64,000 nucleotides of DNA, taken from an uncultured Gemmatimonadales bacterium (lineage in GTDB: Bacteria > Gemmatimonadota > Gemmatimonadetes > Longimicrobiales > Gaopeijiaceae). The translations under genes and the position numbers were made by a program. Location of the stretch: positions 512,001-576,000 of the forward strand of contig CAWELD010000003.1 of NCBI GenBank assembly GCA_963809895.1. Direction: 5' to 3'. Shown here in pieces: positions 8,318-64,000 of the stretch; the first letter of the stretch is position 1, and every line of letters begins with the position of its first letter. The notes under the pieces were generated by a model. The model was not told the origin of the DNA. It ran no database searches and saw only the letters and a program-made list of their open reading frames with translations.

Positions 8318-10465
8318 ATGATCCAGCGCATCGAGCGCCAGTTCGCGGGGCGCCCCCTGATTCTCGAGATCGGCCGCATGGCCAAGCTCGCCGGGGGCTC
8401 CTGCCTGGTGCAGTACGGCGAGACGGTGGTGCTGTGCACCGCCACCGCCCAGAACAAGCCCACCCACCTCCCGTTCTTTCCGCTCACGGTGGAATATCGG
8501 GAGAAGCAGTACGCCGCCGGGAAGATCCCCGGAGGCTTCTTCAAGCGTGAGGGCCGTCCCGGCGAGAAGGAGATCCTGGCGGCGCGCCTCACGGACCGCC
8601 CTCTGCGGCCGCTGTTTCCCGACGGCTTCATGAACGAGACGCAGATCGTCTGCAACGTGTTGAGCGCCGATCAGGAGAACGACGCCGACGTGCTCGCCCT
8701 CCTGGGCGGGAGCGTGGCGCTCAACCTGTCCAGCATCCCGTTCCCGGAGATGGTGGCCTCCGTGCGGGTCGGGCGCATCCAGGGAACCTGGGTGTGGAAT
8801 CCCACCTTCCAGCAGCTCGGATATTCCGACGTCGACATGATCGTCGCCGGGTCCGAGGACGCCATCCTCATGGTCGAGGGCGGCGCCATCGAGGTGTCGG
8901 AAGAGGACATGCTCGAGGGCATCGAGTTCGCCCACAAGGGCATCCAGGAGCTCATCGGCATCCAGAAGGAGCTGCTCCAGGGCCACAGCGTGCCCGACAT
9001 GGAGTGGACGCCCCAGCTGCCCGACGCCTCGCTCAAGCAGCGGGTGGAGGACCTGGCGGCGCCCCGGGTCGTGGAGGCGCTCAACCTGCAGGACAAGCAG
9101 GAGCGTCAGCAGGCCATGGCGGCGCTACGTGAAGACATCGTCGGTCAGCTCCAGGAGGAAGACGAGGAGTACCCGGAGCACGAGGATCAGGTGGGCGACA
9201 TCCTGCGCACCATCGAGAAGCGCACCATGCGCCGCCAGATCCTGGACAAGGGCGAGCGGGCGGACGGCCGGGGCCTCGACGAGATCCGGCCCATCTCCTG
9301 CGAGGTGGGGCTGCTGCCCCGCACGCACGGCTCGGCGCTCTTCACGCGGGGCCAGACGCAGGCGTTGGCGGTGACCACCCTGGGGACCTCCCGGGACGAG
9401 CAGCGCATCGACTCCATCGATACGCGCGAAGAAGTCACCAAGTCGTTCATGCTCCACTACAACTTCCCGCCCTTCTGCGTGGGTGAGGCCCGGCCGTTCC
9501 GGAGCACCTCGCGCCGCGAGATCGGACACGGGAATCTGGCGGAGCGGGCGATCCAGCCCCTGCTTCCGGCCTACGACGACTTTCCCTACACGATTCGCCT
9601 GGTCTCGGACATCCTGGAGTCCAACGGCTCCTCGTCCATGGCCACCGTATGTGGGGCGTCGCTCTCGCTCATGGATGCCGGCGTGCCGATCCGGGCTGCC
9701 TGCGGCGGCGTCGCCATGGGGCTGATCAAGGAAGGCGACGAGGTGGCGGTGCTCACCGACATTCTCGGCCTCGAAGACGCCCTGGGCGACATGGACTTCA
9801 AGGTGGCGGGCACGCGCAAGGGCGTGACCTCCATCCAGATGGACATCAAGATCAAGGGCATGACCGTCCAGATCATGCAGGAAGCGCTGCAGCGCGCCCA
9901 CAAGGGCCGCATGCACATCCTGGACATCATGGAGCAGACCATCGCCGAGCCCCGGAGCGACATCTCCGAGTGGGCGCCGCGCATCACCACGCTGCAGGTC
10001 AACCCGGAGAAGATCGGGGAGATCATCGGGCCCAAGGGCAAGACGATCCGCGCCATCCAGGACGAGTCGGGCTCGACCATCGAGATCGATGACAGCGGTC
10101 TGGTGAAGATCGCGGCCATCAGCGCCGAGAACGCCTCCCGTGCCCGTGAGATGATCGAGGCCATCGTGCAGGAGCCCGAGGTCGGGCGCATCTACGAGGG
10201 TCCGGTGAAGAACACCACCACCTTCGGCGCCTTCATCGAGATCCTGCCCGGCGTGGAGGGTCTGTGCCACATTTCGGAGCTGGCCGAAGGCCGGGTGGGG
10301 CAGACCGAGGACGTCCTCAAGAAGGGCGACATCACTCGGGTGAAGCTCCTCTCCATCGACGAGAAGGGTCGACTGCGGCTCTCCCGTCGTGCCGCCGTCG
10401 CGGAAGAGGGCGAGGATGGCCAGGAGGCCGAGGCCGCCACGGCCGGGGCCGAGGCCGACGCGTAG
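8318..10465 (+). CDS. pnp: Polyribonucleotide nucleotidyltransferase (PNPase)
   Basis: [59 protein letters not shown] and S1 domains; alternative start 8306. Confidence 0.98.
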
Positions 10466-38269: not shown

Positions 38270-40273
38270 TCAGTCTCCGACGAGATCCTCGAGGAGGCCG
38301 TTCTTCGCGAGGTCCTCCAGGGCCCGGACCACGCGGGGATCGAAGGCCGCGCCGGCGTCCTTGCGGATCATGTCCAGGGTGCGGGCCATGGGAATGGCCT
38401 CCTTGTAGGGACGCTGGTGGAGGAGGGAGTCGAAGACGTCGGCCACGGCCACGATACGGCCCGTGACCGGGATGTCGTTTCCGGCCCGACCGGCCGGATA
38501 GCCCTTGCCGTCCCAACGCTCGTGGTGCGAGAGGGCGATCTCGCGGGCCACTTCCAGCACCCGGTGCGGGCTGCCCGCGAGCAGCTCGGCGCCCAGACGC
38601 GTGTGCTCCCGCATGCGGGCGTACTGGGCGTCGGTGAGGGGGCCGGGCTTGCGCAGGATGTCGTCCGGGATGGCAATCTTGCCGACATCGTGCAGGGGCG
38701 CCGCCAGGCGCAGCACGGACACCGTCGCCGGGTCCATCTCCATGCGCACGGCGATGCGTTCGGCCAGGATGCCCACCCGCTCCTGGTGGCGGCCGGTGGC
38801 GTCGTCCCGGTACTCGGCCGCACGGGCCAGGCGTCGGAGAATCTCCACCCGGGCGTCTTCCAGCTCCCGGGTGCGCTCGCGGACCCGTTCCTCCAGCTGG
38901 TCGCGGGCCTCGCGTAGCGCAAGGTGGAGGGCGCGGGTCTCCAGTAGGTTGAGGATGCGGGCTTCCAGCTCGGTGAGGTCCACGGGCTTGTTGAGGAAGT
39001 CCCGCCCACCCATGCGCAGCGCGCGCTCGCGCACCTCGGGCTGACGCTCGCCGGTGAGGACGAGCACGGGCAGGTATCCCTCGGACTCCACCAGCGGCTT
39101 CATCCGCTCCAGCACCTGGAATCCGTCCATCTCGGGCATCATCAGGTCCAGGAGCACCAGGTCCGGCGCGTCGGCGTCCATGGACGCCAGCGCTTGCACC
39201 GGATCCTGGAAGCCCTCGACGTTGGTGAACCCCAGAGCCCGGAGCGCACGGCCGAACGCCCGCAGGTTGGAGCCCTCGTCGTCCACGACCACGATGCGCG
39301 CCCCCAGGAATCGCTGTGCGCCGTTGCTTGCGCCGGGTCCGGGCCCACCCGCCAACGCCAGAACCGGTGTGGACGATCCTCGCACGGCAACGCCCGACTC
39401 GAGCTCGCCCTCGAACGCATGCACGCGCAGCTGATCCGGTCCCTGGCGCTTCGCCTCGCGCAGGGCCTCATCGGCGGCGCTCACCAGGGCATCCGCGCTG
39501 GCCGTGTGCTCGTCGTGCGACGCCACGCCGGCGCTCATCGTGACGGGCTGCCAGCGGAGCGGGGCATCGCGCACGGCCGTCCGCAGGGCGTCGGCGCGGG
39601 CGACGGCCCGGGCCTCGGTCACGGCGGGCAGGATCACCAGGAACTCGCCGCCCCCCCAGCGGCCCACGAGCTCACCGTCGCGGAGCGTGCGGCGGATGAT
39701 CCCGCCGACCTCGCGCAGCACCTCATCACCGGCCTCATGGCCGTGCTCCTCGTTGAGCCAGCGGAGGCCGTCCAGGTCGAAGAGGACGAGCGACAGGGGC
39801 GTGCCCGCCCGGGCGCCCGCAACCGAGGCGTTCAGCGTGATCTGGGTATGGCGCCGATTGGGGAGGCCCGTTACCGGATCGGTGAGGGCCAGGCGGTGAC
39901 TCGCGGCCCGCTGGCGGTCCTGGAGGCTCGCGAACCAGCCGGCGCCGACGCTCAGCGCGACGTACGCCGCCAGCGCGGGAACGACCACGCGCCAGTCCGG
40001 CATGCCACCCCCCCGCAGGTTCACCAGGACCTGCCCGATCGCCAGCACCGCCATTCCCGCCGCCATCGCCGTGGAGGTGCCCCGCCATCCGCCGTAGTGG
40101 CTCAGGACGAAGGCCGGCAACAAGGTCGTCATCCAGAGGAGTAGACCCAGCTCGCGGGCCGAGCCCGGTGCCGCCGCCAGCCATGCCACCAGCGGGAGCG
40201 CCAGCGACACGCAGATCAGCACCAACGCCGGACCCGGGAGGTGCCTTCGTGGAGGATCGGGAGGTGACGTCAT
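38270..40273 (-). CDS. Membrane-bound c-di-GMP protein: degenerate GGDEF + receiver + HD-GYP
   Basis: About 4 TM; TDPVTGLPNRR, GGGEF; VVDDE..LLDLMMPEMDG..KP; HDVGK, HHERWDGKGYP. Confidence 0.92.
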   Translation of the reverse strand: MTSPPDPPRRHLPGPALVLICVSLALPLVAWLAAAPGSARELGLLLWMTTLLPAFVLSHYGGWRGTSTAMAAGMAVLAIGQVLVNLRGGGMPDWRVVVPALAAYVALSVGAGWFASLQDRQRAASHRLALTDPVTGLPNRRHTQITLNASVAGARAGTPLSLVLFDLDGLRWLNEEHGHEAGDEVLREVGGIIRRTLRDGELVGRWGGGEFLVILPAVTEARAVARADALRTAVRDAPLRWQPVTMSAGVASHDEHTASADALVSAADEALREAKRQGPDQLRVHAFEGELESGVAVRGSSTPVLALAGGPGPGASNGAQRFLGARIVVVDDEGSNLRAFGRALRALGFTNVEGFQDPVQALASMDADAPDLVLLDLMMPEMDGFQVLERMKPLVESEGYLPVLVLTGERQPEVRERALRMGGRDFLNKPVDLTELEARILNLLETRALHLALREARDQLEERVRERTRELEDARVEILRRLARAAEYRDDATGRHQERVGILAERIAVRMEMDPATVSVLRLAAPLHDVGKIAIPDDILRKPGPLTDAQYARMREHTRLGAELLAGSPHRVLEVAREIALSHHERWDGKGYPAGRAGNDIPVTGRIVAVADVFDSLLHQRPYKEAIPMARTLDMIRKDAGAAFDPRVVRALEDLAKNGLLEDLVGD

Positions 40274-40333
40274 TCGGCTACCATCGAGGGAATACCCACC
40301 TTTCACAACCCCCGGGACGATACTGCCCGCCCC

Positions 40334-40349
40334 TGGCACCCAACTTGTA
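40334..40349 (+). promoter_or_regulatory. Putative sigma54 (-24/-12) promoter for clpB
   Basis: TGGCAC-CCAAC-TTGTA versus consensus TGGCAC-N5-TTGC. Confidence 0.4.
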
Positions 40350-40409
40350 CCATTCAATGTGTAGCACCCGCCCCGACTGTCAGAAAGGCAGAAGCCGGAG
40401 ACTGATTAC

Positions 40410-52473: not shown

Positions 52474-55079
52474 GCGGTCCCACACCGGATCCGTCCGCGG
52501 CCCTGGTGGGCGTGGACGGCCTGGACGAGCCCCCCGTGGCTCCCCCGGGCCCCGCCCCGGGGGCGGAGCCCTTGCGCCTGGCGCCCGAGGCGGCCGAGCG
52601 GATCCGCAGCGAGATCGCGCGGGCCGGGGGCCGGGAGGTCTGCTTCCTGGCGTCCGTGACGCCGGCGCGCGTCGTGGTGGACCCCCGGGCGGTGGCCCGC
52701 GGCAACTACGATGCGGTCCTGGCTGCGGCCCGGGACGAACCCGGGGGTGGGGTCATGATCCACAACCACCCATCCGGGGCCCTGGAGCCGTCGCACGCCG
52801 ACCTGTCCGTGGCCGCCCGGCTCTTCGAGCAGGAGCTGGGCACCGCCATCACCGACAACCAGGCCTCCGCGCTGTACGTCGTGGTGGAGCCACCGGCGCC
52901 CCGGGTCGTCACGCCGTTGGATCCGGAGGAGCTGGGCGCGGTGCTGGCGCCCGGTGGAGCCCTCTCGCGGCGACACCCCGGCTACGAGGACCGACGGGGA
53001 CAGCGCGAGATGCTCCAACGCGTGGTGGAGGCCTACAACGACGGCGGCGTGCTCCTGGTGGAGGCCGGCACCGGAACGGGCAAGTCCCTGGCCTATCTGC
53101 TCCCGGCGGCGCGTTGGGCCGCGCAGAACAACGAGCGCACCATCGTCTCCACCGCCACCATCAACCTGCAGGCTCAGCTGGCCAGCAAGGATCTGCCTCT
53201 GGTGGCCAGCCTGGTGGAGGGAGAGCCGTCGTGGGCCCTGGTGAAGGGGCGCGGCAACTACGTGTCCATCCGCCGGGCCCGCCTGGCCAGCGCCGGCGCG
53301 CCGGATCTCTTCGAGAACGATCGCTCCAAGGAGCTCGAGGCCATCCAGGAGTGGATCGGCACCACCGACGACGGCTCGCTGGCGGATCTTCCCTTCCTGC
53401 CGTCGGACGAGGTGTGGGAGGAGGTGCGGAGCGATCCGGACATCTGCTTGCGGGGCAAGTGTCCTCACTTCCAGGAGTGCTTCTACCAGCGCTCCCGTCG
53501 GCGGGCGGCGTCGGCGCGGCTGGTGGTGGTGAATCACCATCTGCTCTTCACCGACCTCGCCGTGCGCCGCGCCACGCAGAACTGGACCCAGTCGGCGGTG
53601 CTGCCCGCCTACAAGCGCGTGATTCTCGACGAGGCGCACAACGTGGAGGACGCGGCCACGTCGCATCTGGGCGTGGAGGTGACCCGGAGCGGTCTCTTCC
53701 GGGTGCTGTCCCGGCTCGATCGGAGGGGCAAGGGCGTGTTGGCCGCGGTCCAGGAGTCCCTGCCCCGCGACGGCGGGCGCGGACAGGACCTGCGGCGGCG
53801 CATCGAGGAGCGGGTGCGGCCCGCGGTGGACGACGCGCGGGCCACGCTGGAGCTGTTCGTGGACGCTCTGGAGCCCTTCGTCATGGCCCGCACGGAGGTG
53901 GAGGGCGAAGCGCTACGCATCGGCGGCCAGGGGGAGGGAGCGGTCCCCGAGCCCATGGGTCAGGACGCGGTGCGGGAGCGCCTGCGGGGGTTGCAGGCGG
54001 CCTTCCAGGCCCTGGAGCGAGAGGTTGGATCGCTGCGCCGGGCGGTGGAGATGGACGAAGCGCTGGAGGAGAGCCTGGAAGGTCGCCTCCTGGACCTGCG
54101 CAGCGCCGAGCGCCGCCTGAGCGCGGCGCAGGCGGGCCTGCAACTCGTGCTGGAGCCGGGGGACCGGGCGGACGCGTTCGTGCGCTGGCTCGAGCTCCGG
54201 GGGCGGGGGCGGAGTCGGAACCTGGTATTGGCCGCCGCCCCCATCGAGCTGGGACCCCTGTTGCGCGACAACCTGTTCGCGCGGGTGGACACGGCCGTGC
54301 TGTCGTCGGCGACGCTGTCCACGCGCAAGCGCTTCGACTTCATCCGGGACCGTCTGGGGCTGGACGCGCCGGGCCTGGCGACGCTGGAGGATCCGCTGAC
54401 GGTGCGGGAAGAGCTGGTCCCGTCGCCCTTCGACTTCGCCACCCAGACCGTGCTGGCGGTTCCCACGGACCTGCCCGATGCGCGCTCCGGGAGCGACGAG
54501 CTGCAGGAGGCCACGGCGCGCGTGGTGGAGGAGCTGGCGCAGCGCACGGGCGGAGGCCTGTTCGTCCTGTTCACCTCGCACCGGGCACTACGCCGGGTCG
54601 CCGAGTACCTGCGTGGTCGCGGGGCCGAAGCGCATTGGCCGCTCTTCGTGCACGGCGAGGACGAACGGGCCCGGCTTCTGGACGGGTTCATCCGCCACGG
54701 CCACGGGATCCTGTTGGGCACCTCGTCGTTCTGGGAGGGCGTGGACGTTCCCGGCGATCCCCTGCGGGGGTTGGTGATCCAGAAGCTCCCGTTCAAGGTG
54801 CCCACAGAGCCGGTGACCGCAGCCCGGGTCGAGGCCCTCGAGGCCCGCGGCGGGAACGCCTTCTGGGAGTACATGCTCCCGCTGGCGGCGCTGAGGCTGA
54901 AGCAGGGATTCGGCCGGCTGGTGCGCTCGACCACCGACCGTGGCGCCGTGATCCTCCTGGACGATCGCATTCTCAGGAAGCGCTATGGGCGTTATCTGCG
55001 GGACTCGTTGCCCGATGCGCCCTTGATCAAAGGGCCGTGGACCCTCCTCACGCGGGGCCTCGACGACTTCTACGGCTGA
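52470..55079 (+). CDS. DinG/YoaA family helicase with N-terminal JAB/MPN (RadC-like) domain
   Basis: REV..HNHPSGALEPSHAD; AGTGTGKS, DEAH, LFTS, FWEGVDV, KQGFGRLVR; TTG start inferred. Confidence 0.92.
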   Translation: MSGPTPDPSAALVGVDGLDEPPVAPPGPAPGAEPLRLAPEAAERIRSEIARAGGREVCFLASVTPARVVVDPRAVARGNYDAVLAAARDEPGGGVMIHNHPSGALEPSHADLSVAARLFEQELGTAITDNQASALYVVVEPPAPRVVTPLDPEELGAVLAPGGALSRRHPGYEDRRGQREMLQRVVEAYNDGGVLLVEAGTGTGKSLAYLLPAARWAAQNNERTIVSTATINLQAQLASKDLPLVASLVEGEPSWALVKGRGNYVSIRRARLASAGAPDLFENDRSKELEAIQEWIGTTDDGSLADLPFLPSDEVWEEVRSDPDICLRGKCPHFQECFYQRSRRRAASARLVVVNHHLLFTDLAVRRATQNWTQSAVLPAYKRVILDEAHNVEDAATSHLGVEVTRSGLFRVLSRLDRRGKGVLAAVQESLPRDGGRGQDLRRRIEERVRPAVDDARATLELFVDALEPFVMARTEVEGEALRIGGQGEGAVPEPMGQDAVRERLRGLQAAFQALEREVGSLRRAVEMDEALEESLEGRLLDLRSAERRLSAAQAGLQLVLEPGDRADAFVRWLELRGRGRSRNLVLAAAPIELGPLLRDNLFARVDTAVLSSATLSTRKRFDFIRDRLGLDAPGLATLEDPLTVREELVPSPFDFATQTVLAVPTDLPDARSGSDELQEATARVVEELAQRTGGGLFVLFTSHRALRRVAEYLRGRGAEAHWPLFVHGEDERARLLDGFIRHGHGILLGTSSFWEGVDVPGDPLRGLVIQKLPFKVPTEPVTAARVEALEARGGNAFWEYMLPLAALRLKQGFGRLVRSTTDRGAVILLDDRILRKRYGRYLRDSLPDAPLIKGPWTLLTRGLDDFYG

Positions 55080-56128
55080 TTCCCGGCCAGCGTCCGCTCC
55101 AGCCACGACAGGGCCCGCGGGCCGTCGGCGTCCACGGCCACCCGGGCCGGTGGCCGGTCCTGGACGACGTGGAGCGCGCCGGCATCGGGTCCGGCCGCCG
55201 TCACTGCGAGAGCCACCGAGCGTGTGTGAACCACGCCCGGATGTACGGCCTCGGCGGTGGCAAGGGGATCCCAGAGCTGGTATTGGCCGGCCTGGATCAT
55301 GGGGGTCTGGGCCTCCAGGACGCCGACGACGAAGGTCAGGGCCGGCGTGGCCGGTCCCGCGGCGGCCAGCCGCGCCACCACGGTGGAGTCCACCGGCACG
55401 CGGCTGGTGGCATCGAGTCCCACCAGGGTCACATCGAAGCCGGCGCCCAGCACGCGGTCTGCGGCACGGGGATCCACCCGGGCGTTCCACTCCGCTTTGC
55501 CGCTGGCGCCGGCATCGTCTGCCGAGGTCACGTTGCCAGGGGCCTCCAGCGACCCGAGCATGGCCACGAGACGCTGGACCCGGCGCGGCATGTCCGGGAG
55601 CGAATCGAGCGCCAGGGCCACATTGGTCAGGGCCCCGAGGGCGAGCAGCGTCACCGGACCGTCCGCATCGCGCACCGCACGGGTCATGAGGCCCACGCCT
55701 TGTGTGTCCATCTCGCCGGGTCGAGGGTCGGGGGGCGCATCGACCCCGAGGAAGCCGGCGGCGTCGTCTCGCCATGGCTTGGGAAAGAGGCGACCGCCGT
55801 CCCACGGCCGCGGGGCACCGCACGCCTTCGGCACCGGGGAGTGCCCGGCCGCGACCTCCAGACGCCTCAGGTGCGAGAGAGCCGTGGCGCAGTCGACGTA
55901 GCCCGGCGCCACCGTGATCGCGCGCACCTCGACGGTGGGTTCCCGCAGGAGAGCCAGCAGCGCGATCCAGTCGTCGGGGCCCAGGTCGGAGTCCACGATG
56001 ACGACGCGAGGTGGCGAGTCCGGGCTCTCGGGGGCATGGTCGCGGGTGCTCGGCTCTCCGCGGCACGCGGCCAGGAACGCGAGCCCCGCCGCGAAGAAGG
56101 CGGCCCGGCGCGCCCGTGTCGTGGTCAC
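55070..56128 (-). CDS. Nucleoside hydrolase (IU/IAG-NH family), lipoprotein
   Basis: Lipobox LAAC; DSDLGPDD (DxDxxxDD), LTNVA, AEWNA..DP.AA, LWDPL. Confidence 0.88.
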   Translation of the reverse strand: MTTTRARRAAFFAAGLAFLAACRGEPSTRDHAPESPDSPPRVVIVDSDLGPDDWIALLALLREPTVEVRAITVAPGYVDCATALSHLRRLEVAAGHSPVPKACGAPRPWDGGRLFPKPWRDDAAGFLGVDAPPDPRPGEMDTQGVGLMTRAVRDADGPVTLLALGALTNVALALDSLPDMPRRVQRLVAMLGSLEAPGNVTSADDAGASGKAEWNARVDPRAADRVLGAGFDVTLVGLDATSRVPVDSTVVARLAAAGPATPALTFVVGVLEAQTPMIQAGQYQLWDPLATAEAVHPGVVHTRSVALAVTAAGPDAGALHVVQDRPPARVAVDADGPRALSWLERTLAGNQP

Positions 56129-57294
56129 GAGCCGTCGGGTGCGCGCCACAGGCGGCCGGTCAGGAGCACGAGGGCCAATCCCAGGGCGGCGAAGAGCAGC
56201 GCCAGCACCGGAATGGCCCGACGGGCTCGGCGGATGCCGCCCACCGGCGCCGGCCCCGGCACCGTGCGCAGTGACCAGACCGACCAACGTGTCACGCCCG
56301 AGTCTCTGCGGAAGCCCAGGATCCGGTCGGGTCGCAGGAAGCCCACGAGCAGGACGTCCGTATCGGTCTGCGCCAGTCTGCGACCCAGCGTATCGAGCAG
56401 CTCCACCCTGGACGCCCAGGCGCGTTCGGGATCCGAGACGGCGTAGGTCGGGCCTCCGGGCGCCGCGGAGGGAACGGGCGTGAGAGCGCGGGCCCAGTCG
56501 GGGCCTGCCCTTCGCACGAGGGTCACGAGATTGCCTTCGTCGTCCGAGGTGATGTCCAACATCTCCGGTGGTGCCGGGTGGTCGGGAGCCGGCGGTGGGG
56601 TCTGCGTTCGGGGTGGGAACCAGTCCGTCTCCACGACCAACGAGTCCACCAGCGTGCCGGAGGCGTCGATACGGTCGATGTGGTAGGCCGTGGGCATGAT
56701 CGCCCAGGCGCCCCCTCGCGGGTCCGTGGTGAGCCGTCGCTGAAGGAGGTAGACGCCCCGCCAGTCCAGGGGCTGTGCCGGCCCCGAGGAGCCCTGCGCG
56801 ACGCCGTCGGGCGAGAGGAGGTGAAAGGGCCTCGCCTCCTGTTCGCCGCTCCCTTCGGCGCGGCCCGAGGTCAGCCAATCGCCCCGCTCCAGGCGAATCG
56901 CGTCCTGCACCTGGAGAGGAAGGGGCGTGCGCCGCACCACCCCACCGTCGATGTCCAGCACCACCAGCGCCGGGCGAGCGGCGTCGAAGGCGAAGATGGA
57001 ATCCCCCGTCACCAGCAGGGAGCCGATGGAGTCCAGCGTCGTCGGTCCTCCCAGCCGTCGGAGGAAGCGCCCACCGGGCGAGAAGACCGCGATCCACCCG
57101 GGCGCGCCCTCGGACACGGCATAGAGCCGTCCCTCGGTGTCCATGGCCCAGGCCCGCGGCGCACCCAGGGCACCGGGTCCGTCCCGGTCCCCGAACGATC
57201 CCGCCTCCTCGAGCTCGAGGTGACACGGCGGGCAGATCGCCTGGGCGCCGGAACCCGGCGCAAGAAGCAGGAACAGGCCGAGGAGTGGAGTCAT
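56125..57294 (-). CDS. Secreted beta-propeller-like protein with C-terminal membrane anchor
   Basis: Signal peptide; DGPGAL, IAVFSPGGRFLRRLG, GDSIFAFD; C-terminal hydrophobic helix. Confidence 0.72.
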   Translation of the reverse strand: MTPLLGLFLLLAPGSGAQAICPPCHLELEEAGSFGDRDGPGALGAPRAWAMDTEGRLYAVSEGAPGWIAVFSPGGRFLRRLGGPTTLDSIGSLLVTGDSIFAFDAARPALVVLDIDGGVVRRTPLPLQVQDAIRLERGDWLTSGRAEGSGEQEARPFHLLSPDGVAQGSSGPAQPLDWRGVYLLQRRLTTDPRGGAWAIMPTAYHIDRIDASGTLVDSLVVETDWFPPRTQTPPPAPDHPAPPEMLDITSDDEGNLVTLVRRAGPDWARALTPVPSAAPGGPTYAVSDPERAWASRVELLDTLGRRLAQTDTDVLLVGFLRPDRILGFRRDSGVTRWSVWSLRTVPGPAPVGGIRRARRAIPVLALLFAALGLALVLLTGRLWRAPDGS

Positions 57295-58604
57295 GGCCGG
57301 CCGAATTTCGTCTCGATCTCCACGCCGCAGTCGCGCAGGAACCGCGTCGGCAGCTCTCCGCCGATGAAGACGAACACCTGGCTCGCCGGAACCTGGATTG
57401 CCTGGCGATCCCGGTCGAGGACCACCTCGCCCGGGCGGATCTCCGTCGGCGTCGTTCCCAGGAGAGCTTCCACGGACCCTCGCGAGATCGCCTCCTCCAC
57501 GCGCTCGTGGTTTCGCGGCTTGATGCGGCTGAACGCCTCACGTCGATACGAGATACGGACCTCGTTGCCCGGCTGTTCCGAGAGTGCCAGCGCGGCTTCC
57601 ACCGCGGAGTCGCCGCCGCCCACCACGAGAATGCGATCGGTGGCGTACGCTTCCGGCTCCCGGAGCGAATACGCCACGTGGGGAGCGTCTTCGCCAGGGA
57701 CACCGAGCTTGCGGGGCACCCCTCGCCGCCCGATGGCCAGCACCACCCTGCGGGACTCGTAGATGCCCCGGTCGGTGATCACCCGGAAGTGGAGATCGCC
57801 GACACGATCCACCGACTGCACCGTCTCGCGTGTGTGAACATCGAGGTCGCCTTGCGTGGCGATGTCCTCCCACAGCTCGATGAGCTCCTCCTTGGAGATC
57901 TCGCGCAACGGCAGCTTGCCGTAGCCCGGGACCTGCACCGGGCGCGTCATCACCAGCTTCTTCCGGGGATAATGGCGCACCGTACCCCCGAGATCCTCCT
58001 TTTCCAGGGTAACGGCGGTCAGTCCCCGATGCCGGGCGGTGAGCGACGCCGAGAGGCCGGCGGGACCGCATCCGACGATCAGCAGGTCGAGCAGGTCGCC
58101 GGCAGTGGTGCCACGCCCCTCTTTCAGAATGCCCTCGATGCACTGCCGGCCCTGCTCGAAGGCGTTGGCCACCAGTCCCATGCCGCCGAGCTCTCCCACG
58201 ACGTAGAGCCCGCGCACGTTGGTCTCGAAGTTCTCCTTGACCCGGGGCAGGTCCACGCCTCGCGTCTCGGTTCCGAACACGAGCTGAATGGCGTCCATGG
58301 GGCAGGAGCGCTCACAGAGGCCGTGGCCGATGCACCGCGCCGGAGCCACGGCCACGCCCTGGCCGGCGCGGAGGCCGAGCACCTCCTCGGGGCAGACGCT
58401 CACGCAGTTCGCGATCCCGATGCAGCGCTCGGGGTCGACCACCGGATGCAACGAGACGGGCTCGTGGAGACCGTATTTCAGAGCCTCCACCTCCGCGTCG
58501 TCGGTCTGGCGCTCCTTGCGGCGCATGCGGATCAGGACCGGGAGCGTCACGAGGGCGGTGAGCGCCGACCCGATGCCCCAGACGATGAGCATGTCCCGGT
58601 CCAT
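57291..58604 (-). CDS. Membrane-anchored ferredoxin-domain FAD/NAD(P)H oxidoreductase (TrxB/YpdA-like)
   Basis: N-terminal TM; CIGIANCVSVCP and CIGHGLCERSCP; GCGPAG; GGGDSA..YRR; no CxxC redox pair in the reductase domain. Confidence 0.88.
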   Translation of the reverse strand: MDRDMLIVWGIGSALTALVTLPVLIRMRRKERQTDDAEVEALKYGLHEPVSLHPVVDPERCIGIANCVSVCPEEVLGLRAGQGVAVAPARCIGHGLCERSCPMDAIQLVFGTETRGVDLPRVKENFETNVRGLYVVGELGGMGLVANAFEQGRQCIEGILKEGRGTTAGDLLDLLIVGCGPAGLSASLTARHRGLTAVTLEKEDLGGTVRHYPRKKLVMTRPVQVPGYGKLPLREISKEELIELWEDIATQGDLDVHTRETVQSVDRVGDLHFRVITDRGIYESRRVVLAIGRRGVPRKLGVPGEDAPHVAYSLREPEAYATDRILVVGGGDSAVEAALALSEQPGNEVRISYRREAFSRIKPRNHERVEEAISRGSVEALLGTTPTEIRPGEVVLDRDRQAIQVPASQVFVFIGGELPTRFLRDCGVEIETKFGRP

Positions 58605-60205
58605 CAGAACGTCCTCGACAGCGAGAGGCTCAGGTATTGGCCACGCAGGCCGCCGCCCCATTGGCTCCTCAGCCGAGCGGACAACCGGAGACCCGTCGCC
58701 AACGGTGCGTCGGCGCTGAGCTCGCCCGCGTGCGTCGTGGACACGTAGGTCGGGTAGTCCGCCCGATAGAAGCGGTACCCCAGGCGCATGCGGGCTCTGC
58801 CCAGGCCGAAGAGCAGCGCCGGCGCCGCCGAGATCACGCGTCCATCCTCGTTGCTCCAGAACGAGGCGGAGCCCGCGAATCCCAGGCCCGAGCCCCGCGG
58901 GGGTGCGGACAGCGAAGTCGTGGACCCCCAGGACGTGCGCCCGTCTTCCTGCCGGGAGGCGGACGCGTCGAGTCCCAGGTATGCGCCTCCGAGCCTGAAT
59001 CCGAGCCCGCCGTCCACCCGATCGCGGCGGGGCCCGAACGTCTCGGACAGCGTCCACAGGCGGTACCGCTCGTCGCGCGCCACACCCACCCGCAGATCGA
59101 CCACCGGCGAGAGCCTCACGGTGCTGCGCATGCGTAGCTCCGACACCTTCCAGCTTCCGTCGTCGGGATCCCGGTCCACCTGGAGATCCTGGCTGAGTCG
59201 GAAGGGTCCCGCGGCGATCCGCTGACTCAATCCGAGAAAGGTGTGCCCGTTCAGGTCGGTGGTCGGCCGCACCGTGTGCGCGGACAGGTCGGCCCGCCAG
59301 CGCCAGTCCCGGCCGCGCCGCTCCGTGTCGACGAAGACCGACGCCTTGGGGAGCTCTCCACTCGGCGTCTCGTTCCAGCGGTCCGGCTGAAAGCCCACCA
59401 GAAACCCGACGCCGAGGGATTCCGGTCCGTAGCGAACCATGAGCCCGTCCCAGAAGCCGCTGTAGGATTCGGCGGGGCTGTAGAAGCGTCCCAGCGTCAG
59501 GCGGAGTGGGAGGCTGGTGAAGCGGCGATCCAGCGCGGCCTCGTAGACTCGTACCGACGTCGGGCGGAGGAGCGAGGCGTCCTGGGCCGCATAGCGATAC
59601 GCCACGCGGGCGCTGGTGCGCAGCTCGAATCCCCCGACGGCGTCCGGCACGGTGACGTCGAAGCGCAGCGCGGGTGTGGCGAAGGTGCGATCCACGCTCT
59701 CGGGATCGGTCCTGCCCACCTGGGTCGTGGAGTGGCTGGCAGCGAGATCCAGACTCCAGCGACCGTGCGCGGGGCTCGATGCCACGGGCGAGGACCGCTC
59801 CGCGGGTTCGGGGGATTCGGCTGCAGGCGTCGTCGGCCTCGTGTCGACCTTCGGTGCGACCCGTGCCGCCCGCACCATGTGCAGGACGATCGCGCTTCCC
59901 CGGAGCACGTCCAGAGGGGGGCCCACGAAGCTCAGCACGGCACGGGTCGGCGTGCTCGCGGTGACCACCACCACGCCGGACGTGGCCGCGTCGTCCGCCA
60001 GCTCCACGGCGAGGGTGTCTCCGGTGGCCAGACCCTGATCCGTGCCGATGTCGAGGTATAGCGTGTTTCCCGCCACCTGCCGGACGGCGACGGTGAGGGG
60101 TGCCGGCGGCGCGTCCTGCGCCTCGAGGGGCGAGCGCGCCGCGAGCGCGACCGCCACGGCGCACGTCAGCGCCGAAAGGCGTGGGAACACCCCCATGCGC
60201 GCCAT
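58604..60205 (-). CDS. Predicted outer-membrane beta-barrel (porin-like) protein
   Basis: Signal peptide (..LEA|Q), many amphipathic strands, C-terminal YLSLSLSRTF with terminal Phe; next to multiheme cytochromes. Confidence 0.78.
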   Translation of the reverse strand: MARMGVFPRLSALTCAVAVALAARSPLEAQDAPPAPLTVAVRQVAGNTLYLDIGTDQGLATGDTLAVELADDAATSGVVVVTASTPTRAVLSFVGPPLDVLRGSAIVLHMVRAARVAPKVDTRPTTPAAESPEPAERSSPVASSPAHGRWSLDLAASHSTTQVGRTDPESVDRTFATPALRFDVTVPDAVGGFELRTSARVAYRYAAQDASLLRPTSVRVYEAALDRRFTSLPLRLTLGRFYSPAESYSGFWDGLMVRYGPESLGVGFLVGFQPDRWNETPSGELPKASVFVDTERRGRDWRWRADLSAHTVRPTTDLNGHTFLGLSQRIAAGPFRLSQDLQVDRDPDDGSWKVSELRMRSTVRLSPVVDLRVGVARDERYRLWTLSETFGPRRDRVDGGLGFRLGGAYLGLDASASRQEDGRTSWGSTTSLSAPPRGSGLGFAGSASFWSNEDGRVISAAPALLFGLGRARMRLGYRFYRADYPTYVSTTHAGELSADAPLATGLRLSARLRSQWGGGLRGQYLSLSLSRTF

Positions 60206-62624
60206 CAGTCCCCCCGTCCTCTGGGGTGGCACGCAAAGCATGCGGACGTCTCGTAGGTGTAGCCCGACACTTCGCTGTGGTCACGGTCGGTGTTGGAGCG
60301 CGTGTGGCAGGTCGTGCACGAGAAGCTCCCGAAGTCGCCGGGCACGGTGTGACAATCCGCGCACTGATTCCACCTGCCCTGATGGGATCCAGAGTAGATC
60401 GGGAAGAACTGGGCGTCGTGATCGAAGGACGTCGCACTCCAGGTGTCCACGTTGTGGCAGGACAGGCAGGTAGTGGGGAAGCCGTCCGTGGCGTGCTCGC
60501 CGTCGTAGTCGCTCTGATGGCAGGCCACGCAGTCGTCCTGGGTGGCGGGGTCGGGGAAGAGCAGCGTGTAGCCGGGCACGGCGTGGCAGTCGGTGCAGGC
60601 GGCGGAGGCGTGGCTGCCCACGAGCTGGAAGCCACCGGAGAGCGCGACGTGGTCGACCTGGGCGCCGTCCCAGCCGGTCTGGGTGTGGCAGGACAGACAG
60701 GTCGTAGGGAAGCCCGAGCCGGCGTGCTCGCCGTCGTAGTCGGCCTGATGGCAGGCCACGCAGTCGTCCTGGGTGGCGGGGTCGGGGAAGAGCAGCGTGT
60801 AGCCGGGTACGGCGTGGCAGTCGGTGCAGGCGGCGGAGGCGTGGCTGCCCACGAGCTGGAAGCCTCCGGAGAGCGCGGCGTGGTCGACCTGGGCGCCGTC
60901 CCAGCCGGTCTGGGTGTGGCAGGACAGGCAGGTAGTGGGGAAGCCGGCCGTGGCGTGCTCGCCGTCGTAGTCGGCCTGATGGCAGGCCACGCAGTCGTCC
61001 TGGGTGGCGGGGTCGGGGAAGACGCAGCGTGTAGCCGGGCACGGCGTGGCAGCCGGGCAGGCGGCTGAGGTGGGCGCCGAGGAGCGGGAAGTCCGGAGGC
61101 GGCGTGATCGAACTCGGCGTCGTCCCAGCGGTCGACGGTGTGACAGGTGAGGCAGGTGGTAGGGAAGCCCGAGCCGGCGTGCTCACCGTCGTAGTCGGCC
61201 TGGTGGCAGGCCACGCAGTCGTCCTGGGTGGCCGGGTCGGGGAAACGCAGCCCCCCGCCCTCGAGGTGACAGGCCGAGCAGTCCTGACTCTGGTGGGCGC
61301 CGAGGAGGGCGAATCCGGTGGTGGCGTGATCGAAGTCGGCGTCGTCCCAGCGGTCGACGGTGTGACAGGTGAGGCAGGTGGTGGGGAAGCCCGAGCCGGC
61401 GTGCTCACCGTCGTAGTCGGCCTGGTGGCAGGCCACGCAGTCGTCCTGGGTGGCGGGGTCGGGGAAACGCAGCCCCCCGCCCTCGAGGTGACAGGCCGAG
61501 CAGTCCTGACTCTGGTGGGCGCCGAGGAGGGCGAATCCGGTGGTGGCGTGATCGAAGTCGGCGTCGTCCCAGCGGTCGACGGTGTGACAGGTGAGGCAGG
61601 TGGTGGGGAAGCCCGAGCCGGCGTGCTCACCGTCGTAGTCGGCCTGGTGGCAGGCCACGCAGTCGTCCTGGGTGGCGGGGTCGGGGAAACGCAGCCCCCC
61701 GCCCTCGAGGTGACAGGCCGAGCAGTCCTGACTCTGGTGGGCGCCGAGGAGGGCGAATCCGGTGATGGCGTGGTCGAAGTCGGGATCCGACCAGGTGTTC
61801 TGCGTGTGGCAGGAGAGGCAGGTGGTGGGGAATCCCGAGCCACCGTGCTCGCGGTCGTAGTCGGCCTGGTGACAGGACGTGCAATCCTCAGGTCCTGCCG
61901 GCGAGAACAGGGTCGCCATGCCGGGGGTCTGGTGGCAGCTCGCGCAGCGCAGTCCCTGGTGGGCTCCCAGGAGGGGGTACCCTCCGCTCGCTCCGAGGTG
62001 ATCGAAGGCGGGTGCGTCGCTCCATCCGACGGTACCGTGACACTGCGTACAATCCATGGGATAGCCCGCAGCCACGTGGTCCAGGGTCTGGGCGCTACGA
62101 TAGGCCGATGCGTGGCATGAGGCGCAGTCGGTGGGGAGGGCCGTGAAGGCCCCTCCGGAGTCGTCGGTGTGGCAGCTCGCGCACGTCACCTGCAGGTGCG
62201 CGCCGGTGAGGGGGAACGACGTGCGGGCGTGCACGGCTTCGCCATCGACATCGTGGAAGGAGTCCGTGCTGTGACAGACTGTGCACTCCTGCACCATGCG
62301 CCCGTCATGTGGGTCTTCGTGGCAGCTGGTGCAGTCGTCCATGTCCACCTGCGGCGCGGCGAAGCGGAGGTCCGTGTGGCAGGTGCTGCATTCCAGCGCG
62401 CCGTGGGTTCCGGTCAGCGGCGTCGGGTGCGTGAAGCGGAGCGTGTCTCGAAGCGGGGTCCACGCCGAGGACGTATGGCAGGCCGCGCAATCCAATCCCT
62501 CAGGGAGCGCGCCATGCGGATTGGTGGACGAGGGACGCTGGCCGAGCGTGGCCGCCGGAAGGCTGGCGGAGGCGAGCAGGGCGAGGGTCAGCGGACGAAG
62601 CACGGACCGGACGAGGGAGCTCAC
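60205..62624 (-). CDS. Large multiheme cytochrome c (30 intact CxxCH plus one disrupted), frameshifted near 61020-61100
   Basis: Signal peptide; 19 CxxCH before and 11 after the frameshifted junction. Confidence 0.92.
60455..61050 (-). repeat. Intragenic tandem repeat B, 231-bp unit (77 aa, 3 hemes), about 2.5 copies
   Basis: cagtcgtcctgggtggcggg recurs at 60530, 60761 and 60992. Confidence 0.9.
61105..61770 (-). repeat. Intragenic tandem repeat A, 222-bp unit (74 aa, 3 hemes), 3 near-identical copies
   Basis: cgtcccagcggtcgacggtg recurs at 61121, 61343 and 61565. Confidence 0.92.
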
Positions 62625-64000
62625 GCGGCACCTCCGTGGCAGTCCGTGCACGAATGACCCAGCGGGCGATAGCGCGTGATGCTTACGCCCCCGGGACCCG
62701 GCTCGGACCGATGGCAGGCGACACACGCCAGCTCCTGATGCACACCCTCCAGGTCGAATCCCGTGACGCGATGATCGAAGTCGGGAATGGCAAAGCTCGT
62801 CTGCTCGTGGCAGGAGTCGCAGCGCCGCCCGTCGAACTGATCGCCGTGGGGATTGTCACCCGCGTGGCAGCTGAGGCAGCTGCTCAGCCCCGACCTGCAT
62901 GACGAAGCGCGTCCCTTCCCGTCGGTGGCACTCGCCGCAGGCGACCGTCAGGTGGGCGCCTTCGAGCTGGAAAGCGTTGTCCGCGTTGTGGCGGCCGATG
63001 TCGTACTGCGCCGGGAGCCATCGATCCTGTCCGTGACAGTCCGTGCACGCGTCGGTGCCGTCGGTGCCCGCCAGGACGCCCTGGTGCTCGTCCTCGTGGC
63101 AGCTGGTGCAGCGCTCGCTCTCCGGCGCGGGGAACGTCCGCGAGGCGGTACCGTCGACGTAGCGGACATGAAGGCCCGGAAGGCCCGCGGCCGTTTCTCG
63201 GTCGTGACACGAGGCGCATGGTGTTTCCGCGTGTCGACCCTGGAGCACGAAACCGGTCGACGCGTGATCGAAGCGGCCCTCGACCCTCGATCGGTTCACC
63301 GGCAACCAGCCGGCGGTGCTGTGGCAGGTGGTACACGCCCCTTGCATGGCCCCGTCGTGCCGATCCTGGTGGCAAGCGGTGCACGTGCCGAACGAGAGAG
63401 GTCGAAAACGCACCGAGACGGGCTCACTCGGCGGGTCCGGGCTCGTGGCAGGAAGAGCAGTCCAGCGCCCGGTGCCGCCCCGTGAGCCGATAGCGCGCGC
63501 GATCGTGGTCGAACCCCGGTGCATCTTCCCAGCTGCCGGTGTCGTGGCATGCGGTGCAGGCCCGGTCGGAGAACTCACCGGCGTGCGGGTCATCGTCCTC
63601 GTGACACGCGGCGCACGTGTTCGGGAGCCCCAGGAACGTCCGGGCCAGCGCCGTGGGGTCCGGCCTGAAGCGGCGCACCGCCGCATCGACGATGCGCTCG
63701 GGGGCGTGACAGTCTCCGCATTCGAGCTCGACATGGCCGCCGTCGAGGGCGAAGCCCGCGTCTTCGTGTGGGAAGCTCGCCGTGTCCAGGCGCACCAGGG
63801 CGAAATCACGCCCGAAGTGCTCCTTGTGACAGGTCGCACAGTCCTCTTCGTTCAGCGAGGCGTGATAGCCTTCTCCACGATCCAGCCGCTGGCGGAGAGG
63901 CTCGTGGCACTCCAGGCACAGGGCGGGGGAGATGCCGGGCTTGCGGAGCTCGTGGCAGGACGTGCACTTCCGCAACCCCTCCAGCTGGGCGTGGGGCGCG
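62621..64000 (-). CDS. Multiheme cytochrome c (>=17 CxxCH), 5'-partial, with two frameshifts (~63435 and ~62890)
   Basis: 7+6+4 CxxCH in three successive frames; the last frame reads CLSCH..CDSCH..CVACH..CTDCHGGAA* and its stop overlaps the next start (GTGA). Confidence 0.9.

Follow-up and report, generated by a model that had tools for sequence, protein, structure and literature searches.

At the right-hand end of a 64,000-nucleotide stretch of DNA from an uncultured Gemmatimonadales bacterium (GenBank assembly GCA_963809895.1, contig CAWELD010000003.1, positions 512,001 to 576,000; hereafter the window), an operon on the minus strand encodes two very large multiheme cytochromes (MHC1 and MHC2), an outer-membrane beta-barrel and a membrane-anchored Fe-S flavoprotein. 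The initial annotation, made from the window alone, had drawn six genes as one operon and proposed a distinct type of conduit for extracellular electron transfer. The whole-genome contig shows that the operon reaches past 64000 and includes the start of MHC1, a TPR gene, the gene of an inner-membrane protein (IMP) and a leader with a riboswitch for cyclic di-GMP (c-di-GMP); the six-gene unit thus missed the head of the operon, and two of its members are passengers. The conserved core is IMP-MHC1-MHC2-barrel-flavoprotein. By signature, character and gene order the operon is PCC3-type, and we do not file it as a proven member of that group.

The features are listed in the direction of transcription, the first four forming the operon head beyond the window end at 64000, as read from the whole-genome sequence. 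Coordinates above 64000 continue the window count (position on contig G000:C3 = value + 512000), and the riboswitch cut-offs are the gathering scores of the Rfam covariance models.

65665-65744, minus strand: c-di-GMP-I riboswitch aptamer (RF03167, 62.4 bits against 59; RF01051, 61.8 against 35)
65607-65664, minus strand: expression platform, a spacer hairpin and an intrinsic terminator (folding)
64682-65605, minus strand: IMP, 307 aa, five hydrophobic helices, predicted di-heme b protein (motif and hydrophobicity)
64083-64679, minus strand: TPR protein, 198 aa, N-terminal anchor, optional accessory (Pfam; in 14 of 80 metagenome loci)
62621-64000, minus strand: MHC1, signal peptide, 17 CxxCH motifs, start at 64086 beyond the window (six-frame scan)
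60205-62624, minus strand: MHC2, signal peptide, 30 intact CxxCH motifs and one degenerate, strongly acidic (six-frame scan)
58604-60205, minus strand: outer-membrane beta-barrel, 533 aa, signal peptide, terminal Phe (AlphaFold 2 (AF2), pLDDT 89.3)
57291-58604, minus strand: membrane-anchored Fe-S flavoprotein, 437 aa (Pfam, profile and pairwise comparisons)
56125-57294, minus strand: passenger, secreted or anchored protein of a multi-copy family
55070-56128, minus strand: passenger, protein of the inosine-uridine nucleoside hydrolase family (PF01156, E 1e-49)

Co-conserved core and unconserved passenger genes

The five stop/start overlaps reported in the initial annotation are exact (GTGA at 62621-24, TGATG at 60203-07 and 58602-06, ATGA at 57291-94, GTGA at 56125-28), and the MHC1 start overlaps the stop of the TPR gene, which itself comes after the IMP gene. 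The suggestion to search beyond 64000 for an inner-membrane carrier was rewarded with the IMP gene.

Giant cytochromes, porin and NAD(P)H flavoprotein had been expected to be conserved together, and 22 genome loci and 80 metagenome loci bear this out. The flavoprotein is present in 19 of the 22 genome loci, the three misses being contig ends, and in 54 of the 80 metagenome loci, many of which are short; its position in the gene order varies. The barrel profile matches 18 of 23 loci, the plasmid locus described below included, and 680 representatives at E 1e-10. Among 401 sampled Gemmatimonadota genomes, IMP is found in 88 and the C-terminal part of the flavoprotein in 79 (E 1e-40). Both are carried by 76 genomes, i.e., 76/79 flavoprotein-positive genomes have IMP and 76/88 IMP-positive genomes pass the strict flavoprotein cut-off, a co-occurrence that is not a statistical test, the genomes being kin. 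The earlier guess that the DNA is from a member of the Gemmatimonadota fits the closest named records, namely Gemmatimonadales and Longimicrobiales metagenome-assembled genomes.

A cultured carrier is found in the Bacteroidota, where plasmid pEMTOL02 of Emticicia oligotrophica DSM 17448 encodes ccsA, IMP, the flavoprotein, cytochromes of 23 and 40 hemes and a weakly matching barrel. In a comparison of 11 proteins, IMP homologs were also found on Bradyrhizobium, Variovorax and Alteromonas plasmids (E ~1e-22; loci L141, L142 and L143), where each lies between a gene of the 2Fe-2S/NAD(P)H-reductase type and that of a 7-heme cytochrome which is related to the N-terminus of MHC1. Next to these small modules there is either a NiFe-hydrogenase cluster or a set of genes for multicopper oxidase and copper resistance. 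An MHC1 query matches 43 plasmids, mostly from sphingomonads and Alteromonas, and 3/3 examined carry the small three-gene module, not PCC3; modules of this size are listed in Table S6 of PMC5566968 (here and below, published sources are cited for their accessible parts).

The two genes at the distal end of the operon as first drawn, labelled beta-propeller and nucleoside hydrolase, are absent beside the operon from 22 genome, 80 metagenome and 15 further loci (0/22, 0/80 and 0/15, or 0/117 in all), a count in which many loci stop short of that position and all long loci are without both genes. The hydrolase label is borne out by Pfam, and the protein opens with a lipoprotein-like signal (LAAC), which to our knowledge is unusual in this family. 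The propeller-labelled protein has no match in Pfam or NCBIfam; its family is unlinked to the operon, with paralogs elsewhere in the same genome and in 55 of 150 genomes of the bacterial family. Since a simple scan of 54000-64000 revealed neither a terminator nor a promoter, read-through into the passenger genes is possible.

Properties of the core proteins

In a six-frame scan of the window, the minus strand shows 47 intact CxxCH motifs between 60240 and 63966; the plus strand, read from 55000 up to position 64000, shows none. The totals of 17 and ~31 hemes given for the two cytochromes in the initial annotation hold when motifs are summed across frame breaks, but neither cytochrome is a single open frame. 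MHC1 is split over three frames (7+6+4 motifs) by single-base frameshifts near 63430 and 62880, and MHC2 over two (19+11 motifs) by a break near 61100, at which the degenerate motif lies. Near-identical contigs from other public runs have one base fewer at 63427 (X2 and X3) and at 62881 (X4); these are single contigs of depth 2-5 with 1-4 letters different, and as their one-base gaps match the frame steps, errors of the assembly most likely account for both breaks in MHC1. The break in MHC2 is the meeting point of 222-nt and 231-nt repeat types and forms a mosaic of both with scattered indels. It is bridged by none of the contigs from other runs, and the repeat number of MHC2 is therefore uncertain.

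MHC2 is built of tandem three-heme repeats of 222-231 nt. Its relatives hold 7-61 motifs in 61 frames, mostly 3n+1, and extra copies occur at some related loci, whereas 59 of the 63 complete frames of MHC1 relatives hold 17, 20 or 23 hemes. Because MHC1 is fixed in length and MHC2 variable and sometimes duplicated, we infer that the former spans the periplasm and the latter represents the terminal module. The cytochromes are rich in small residues, with 24-28.5 residues per heme in relatives, and in an intact relative the number of non-motif His residues roughly equals that of the hemes, which would fit the bis-His hemes of a molecular wire. The genome carries maturation genes of the Ccm type.

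IMP contains the motif WX3HX13H at 108 and 276 and SGIFG (SGxxG) at 148. Both His pairs are invariant in 32/32 aligned members, which had been picked by that very motif, and the family further shares one more invariant His, the fifth, as well as a helical insert of ~120 aa that is conserved and lies on the cytoplasmic side. Two WX3HX13H motifs plus SGxxG have been tied to di-heme b ferric-reductase-like proteins (PMC5566968), and IMP is predicted to bind two b hemes. Searches of PDB sequences returned no solved relative of either IMP or MHC2. Among longer proteins five matches were obtained, namely one natural flavoprotein-IMP fusion (P0343, 740 aa), three proteins in which an IMP-like domain is fused to cyclic-nucleotide-binding (cNMP) and 4Fe-4S domains (P0344-P0346, an arrangement reminiscent of PtdE linked to PtdF), and one frame that appears to be mis-called. 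That the IMP family pairs repeatedly with different cytoplasmic redox enzymes, on the plasmids with an unrelated one, makes a Fre-MsrQ-like relay across the membrane more probable than a quinol oxidase pure and simple, although a quinone site may be present too.

The label Fe-S/FAD oxidoreductase for the flavoprotein is confirmed by Pfam. Basic residues follow its N-terminal membrane helix, which suggests that the body of the protein is cytoplasmic. In its two ferredoxin-type motifs the second ligand is non-Cys in 42/52 and His in 51/52 cases. The C-terminal part is a Bdr/TrxR-like FAD and NAD(P)H domain without CxxC and is nearest to Bdr and to TrxR-type ferredoxin-NADP reductases. Given that residues 173-435 align to Bdr 5-270 and residues 123-147, weakly, to Bdr 277-300, the protein appears to be circularly permuted. 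A YR motif behind the second GxG site presumably indicates NADPH as the substrate. A function as thioredoxin reductase was rejected due to the missing CxxC and a TIGR01292 score of 76.9 bits against 343.

The AF2 model supports the earlier reading of the 58604-60205 product as a beta-barrel ending in Phe, composed of a small N-terminal FlgT_C-like beta domain, a linker and ~22 strands; FlgT_C weakly matches 26 of 79 family members. In VIA-align, the barrels of TonB-dependent receptors come closest (Z 15-16, rmsd 4.0-4.6, 340-370 aligned), and MtrB is not among the structural matches listed, which excludes nothing. No match of the barrel was found in Pfam, NCBIfam or PDB sequences, the latter two consulted also with the Geobacter Pcc porins OmbB, ExtB and ExtI in mind. 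Searches of the ESM Atlas returned only 'hypothetical protein' clusters (Gemmatimonadota, Acidobacteriota, Rhodothermota). A complex prediction for the barrel and the 13-heme MHC2 of locus L175, run without hemes or controls, reached a median of 0.23 against a mark of 0.32 (runs 0.23, 0.53 and 0.02) and counts neither for nor against binding.

The c-di-GMP riboswitch and its predicted action

The best-scoring Rfam family of the aptamer is the GGC (c-di-GMP) form, RF03167, and its position 20 (Vc2 numbering) is a G which we take to bind the ligand. According to folding, the aptamer stems and the terminator are able to coexist in the full leader. In leaders cut at the terminator loop, the minimum-energy fold pairs the 5' strand of the terminator with the 5' end of the aptamer and takes in the presumed ligand-binding G20; this antiterminator is the lowest-energy fold in 5/5 leaders, four from operons and one from a paralog. 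Since it occupies the ligand pocket, ligand should free the terminator, and the element is hence predicted to be an OFF switch, in which c-di-GMP would terminate transcription in the leader of the present lineage. A cGAMP (Hypr) reading was rejected, as the aptamer is of the GGC form and three canonical GGDEF domains keep the Asp, presumably the position that determines Hypr activity.

The predicted OFF switch resembles the Cd1 switch (PMC9262584). In Geobacter sulfurreducens, GEMM-I/GEMM-Ib elements likewise place a cyclic-dinucleotide riboswitch atop an outer-surface cytochrome operon, but these switches sense cGAMP and are ON, whereas the one described here scores as the c-di-GMP form (PMC6456294). 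The same source reports that A20G shifts selectivity from cGAMP to c-di-GMP and that Fe(III)-oxide reduction in Geobacter is antagonised by c-di-GMP.

Besides the present operon, the riboswitch precedes IMP at L003 and L004 (2/20 sources) and at L171, L066 and L069 (3/8 sources, a sample partly pre-selected by a local profile), which with the present one makes six operons; local counts are 2/80, 0/21 and 1/15 plus one weak. It is thus a minority feature concentrated in the closest relatives. On an IMP tree of 42 rows, which does not contain 19 loci missed by the motif filter, the riboswitch label needs 3 changes, and with 80/500 shuffles equally low no claim on its origin is made. In L066 (1272-1349) the riboswitch has no terminator and stops a few bases short of the IMP start codon, suggesting translational control in that lineage, and a degenerate riboswitch-like remnant under the Rfam thresholds lies upstream of IMP in L172 (~8530-8570, minus strand).

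In total, the genome holds five c-di-GMP-I elements and seven GGDEF matches. The other four riboswitches lie at G000:C3:2404384-2404463, C10:830290-830377, C10:960647-960724 and C3:1379316-1379400; one, with a near-identical aptamer and terminator layout, stands ahead of a site-2-protease-like gene and the remaining three ahead of secreted or lipoprotein-like genes. Within the window, ~17 kb from the operon, 38270-40357 (minus strand) encodes a protein with GGDEF (degenerate GGGEF), receiver and HD_5 domains, a probable c-di-GMP turnover enzyme.

Relation to known systems and the proposed electron path

The suggested conduit type is not an undescribed one, as its core of four genes agrees with PCC3 (He et al., 2017; PMC5566968) and the logic of a flavoprotein plus a porin has been published for ptd (bioRxiv 10.1101/2023.11.21.568154). 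Shared with PCC3 are an IMP of ~300 aa and five helices that bears WX3HX13H twice and SGxxG, the two very large repeat-built cytochromes with ~25-28 residues per heme and many small residues, and the outer-membrane beta-barrel in the cluster (PMC5566968). The order IMP, periplasmic cytochrome, extracellular cytochrome and porin is that of Slit_1446-1449 in Sideroxydans lithotrophicus ES-1, here with an inserted TPR gene (PMC11429942). In a Gallionellaceae survey, the hemes of the first PCC3 cytochrome vary in steps of three (21/24/27, compared to 17/20/23 for MHC1) and those of the second widely, as they do here (PMC10734462). The present cassette differs in its conserved membrane-anchored Fe-S/FAD enzyme, the optional TPR gene and the c-di-GMP riboswitch, and it occurs in Gemmatimonadota and Bacteroidota, whereas PCC3 is known from Proteobacteria; the two are likened by motifs, order and description, not by reference sequences. 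PCC3 itself is predicted and functionally unverified (bioRxiv 10.1101/2025.02.27.639646; PMC13386937). In a literature search that scarcely covered subscription journals, no paper was found that ties the flavoprotein or the riboswitch to PCC3, or the cassette to Gemmatimonadota, and the accessible parts of PMC13264449, PMC7399161, PMC8258643 and PMC11651109 do not describe it. Flavoprotein entry and riboswitch, the latter found before six such operons, hence appear as new elements on a PCC3-type core.

With ptdABCDEFG (Elbon, Stewart, Glass; bioRxiv 10.1101/2023.11.21.568154) and PCC4 (PMC5566968), the operon shares the clustering of a porin with multiheme cytochromes, a membrane protein of ferric-reductase-like character and an FAD/NAD(P) oxidoreductase that has Fe-S partners, and in ptd the NAD(P)H oxidoreductase is encoded beside the ferric-reductase-like protein and the porin. 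The cytochromes of those systems are penta-, tetra- and decaheme proteins, accompanied by an Fe-S protein that binds cyclic nucleotides, whereas the present operon has two giant repeat cytochromes and a single Fe-S flavoprotein and lacks a cNMP domain. In Shewanella MtrCAB and Geobacter Pcc, too, a barrel and two multiheme cytochromes are encoded together, which we regard as an analogy in how they work. Membership in the MtrAB type, from which the initial annotation had already set the cluster apart, was rejected, as MtrB_PioB (PF11854) has 0 matches in the genome, the cytochromes do not exceed 40.5 bits for the DmsE family (TIGR03508; cut-off 192.2) and score far under the cut-off for the OmcA family, and the barrel has ~22 strands. 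A CymA-type entry is likewise missing. The NAD(P)H flavoprotein had been proposed to take its place; the partner itself stands, but with IMP present it is an addition rather than a substitute. Two HX13H pairs on two membrane helices are also a feature of the ferric-reductase-domain superfamily (NOX, STEAP, MsrQ), and in Fre-MsrQ, NOX and STEAP a cytosolic NAD(P)H flavoenzyme feeds a membrane protein with His-ligated b hemes, which passes the electrons on to the outer face; for MsrQ, a separate cytosolic reductase passes NADH electrons to the heme (PMC12525009). Here the acceptor would be a multiheme chain plus barrel and the flavoenzyme is TrxR/Bdr-like with Fe-S clusters; we take the likeness as an analogy.

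Two further multiheme clusters of another type are present in the genome (G000:C10:1137370-1145546 and G000:C3:2239062-2245249, both minus strand), with an 8-heme, a 9- or 17-heme and a 16-heme protein and a heme-free frame of 510-540 aa (putative barrel). The C10 cluster runs on into genes for a 9-heme protein and for Rieske- and cytochrome b-like proteins, with genes of menaquinone type next to them (labels by eye), and in L050 and L051 a cluster of this type is the neighbour of the PCC3-type operon. Such clusters could handle quinol-linked export and leave another job to the present operon. In addition, G000:C3:2185666-2193215 encodes 11-, 12- and 15-heme cytochromes and cytochrome b-like membrane proteins and is flanked by two-component regulators.

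From our point of view, there is an even chance that the cassette forms a self-contained, NAD(P)H-fed electron path through both membranes, most likely directed outward. Electrons would pass from NADPH via FAD to the Fe-S clusters of the membrane-anchored flavoprotein, from there to the two predicted b hemes of IMP, which would carry them across the inner membrane as in NOX, STEAP or Fre-MsrQ, and on to the fixed-length MHC1 in the periplasm. MHC2, of variable length and either lodged in the barrel or passing through it like a thread, might then deliver them to an insoluble or bulky acceptor outside, such as Fe or Mn oxides, humics or partner cells, and the proposed cable would comprise ~48 hemes (17 + ~31). 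Because a coupling site is not apparent, the path would be expected to act as an outlet for reductant or a reductase at the surface more than as energy-conserving respiration. One could further speculate, with more doubt than belief, that this quinone-independent line from NADPH to the surface is a split NADPH oxidase that yields a heme-wire current, has its length tuned by the three-heme repeats and, in the present lineage, is expressed at low c-di-GMP, i.e., in the free-living state.

Several observations weigh against such a path. No lipobox or other sign of surface targeting is seen by eye in either cytochrome, both having ordinary signal peptides. A fold search with IMP returned STEAP4 (Z 8.0, rmsd 5.1, 151 aligned) and cytochrome b561 (Z 7.8), both of which rank among unrelated helical bundles and not above background, and Ferric_reduct (PF01794) matches 2 of the 32 IMP members, weakly (best E 6e-4). 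The flavoprotein-IMP fusion is one cluster on one contig only. The barrel is similar to 22-strand transporter barrels and narrower than MtrB with its 26 strands, and it is patchy within its own family (19 of 150 genomes, 17 strong and two weak). The antiterminator pairs are invariant in five closely kin leaders and thus lack covariation support. The host has two heme-copper oxidases, and its need for the cassette is not evident. Electron transfer by members of the cassette is a prediction from genes, and the published PCC3 models draw on the quinone pool, not on NAD(P)H (PMC5566968).

The operon might accordingly be a classic PCC3, in which IMP trades electrons with the quinone pool, as in its published model (PMC5566968), and the flavoprotein, instead of being the obligatory entry, forms a side branch from NAD(P)H to quinone or IMP. 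From Sideroxydans, four-gene PCC3 clusters have been reported with no flavoprotein listed, and MsrQ holds ubiquinone besides FMN (PMC12525009). We nevertheless consider this unlikely in view of the near-complete co-occurrence of IMP and flavoprotein in the phylum, the existence of their fusion and the conserved cytoplasmic helical domain of IMP, which would be needless in a simple quinol oxidase. Somewhat less probable still is that the operon serves not as a respiratory through-conduit but, at the surface or in the periplasm, as a reductase and charge store for acquiring or detoxifying metals, the barrel exporting MHC2 or admitting substrate rather than insulating a wire. The nearness of the barrel to TonB-dependent-receptor barrels, the copper-resistance, multicopper oxidase or hydrogenase genes beside the plasmid modules and the plasmid-borne cassette of Emticicia oligotrophica, an aerobe, speak for it, but the N-terminal domain of the barrel is FlgT_C-like (a weak profile match) and not a receptor plug, up to 61 hemes in MHC2 are far beyond the needs of a soluble-metal reductase, and the operon is under predicted c-di-GMP control with no metal-regulator gene seen adjoining it.

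An inward direction, in which NADPH is made with electrons drawn from partner cells, Fe(II) or reduced humics, would be compatible with the reversibility of TrxR-type ferredoxin-NADP reductases. PCC3 was moreover discovered in Fe(II) oxidisers, and its IMP gene is up in iron-oxidising cells of Sideroxydans CL21 (bioRxiv 10.1101/2025.02.27.639646). The reduction of NADP+ by most c-heme donors would, however, run uphill, with no coupling site evident. As the carriers are, in addition, mainly of heterotroph lineages, we hold this direction to be improbable. Finally, the three frame breaks in two genes, of which the one in MHC2 is bridged by no contig, could be real and both cytochromes pseudogenes of a decaying operon in the present organism. 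This is very improbable, as other contigs are one base shorter at each MHC1 break in agreement with the frame steps, the mosaic at the MHC2 break is of the kind a consensus error would leave, the other four core genes are intact and so are the cytochromes of close relatives.

Extracellular electron transfer as known today begins at the quinone pool and in a few model Proteobacteria and Desulfobacterota. If the proposed NAD(P)H-fed path is true, about one fifth of the sampled Gemmatimonadota genomes, as well as Bacteroidota, would carry such a line. Abundant soil and wetland lineages would then own a route with its origin at NAD(P)H, and the view of who can reduce minerals and humics, and why, would become wider. 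The predicted regulation would parallel that in Geobacter, where c-di-GMP counteracts the reduction of Fe(III) oxide, but would work via a directly acting OFF switch. PCC3, predicted in 2017, would thereby gain NADPH-driven heme reduction as a biochemical handle, a cultured carrier and, with low c-di-GMP, a predicted inducing condition, and a requirement for low c-di-GMP may explain why such operons are seldom caught expressed.

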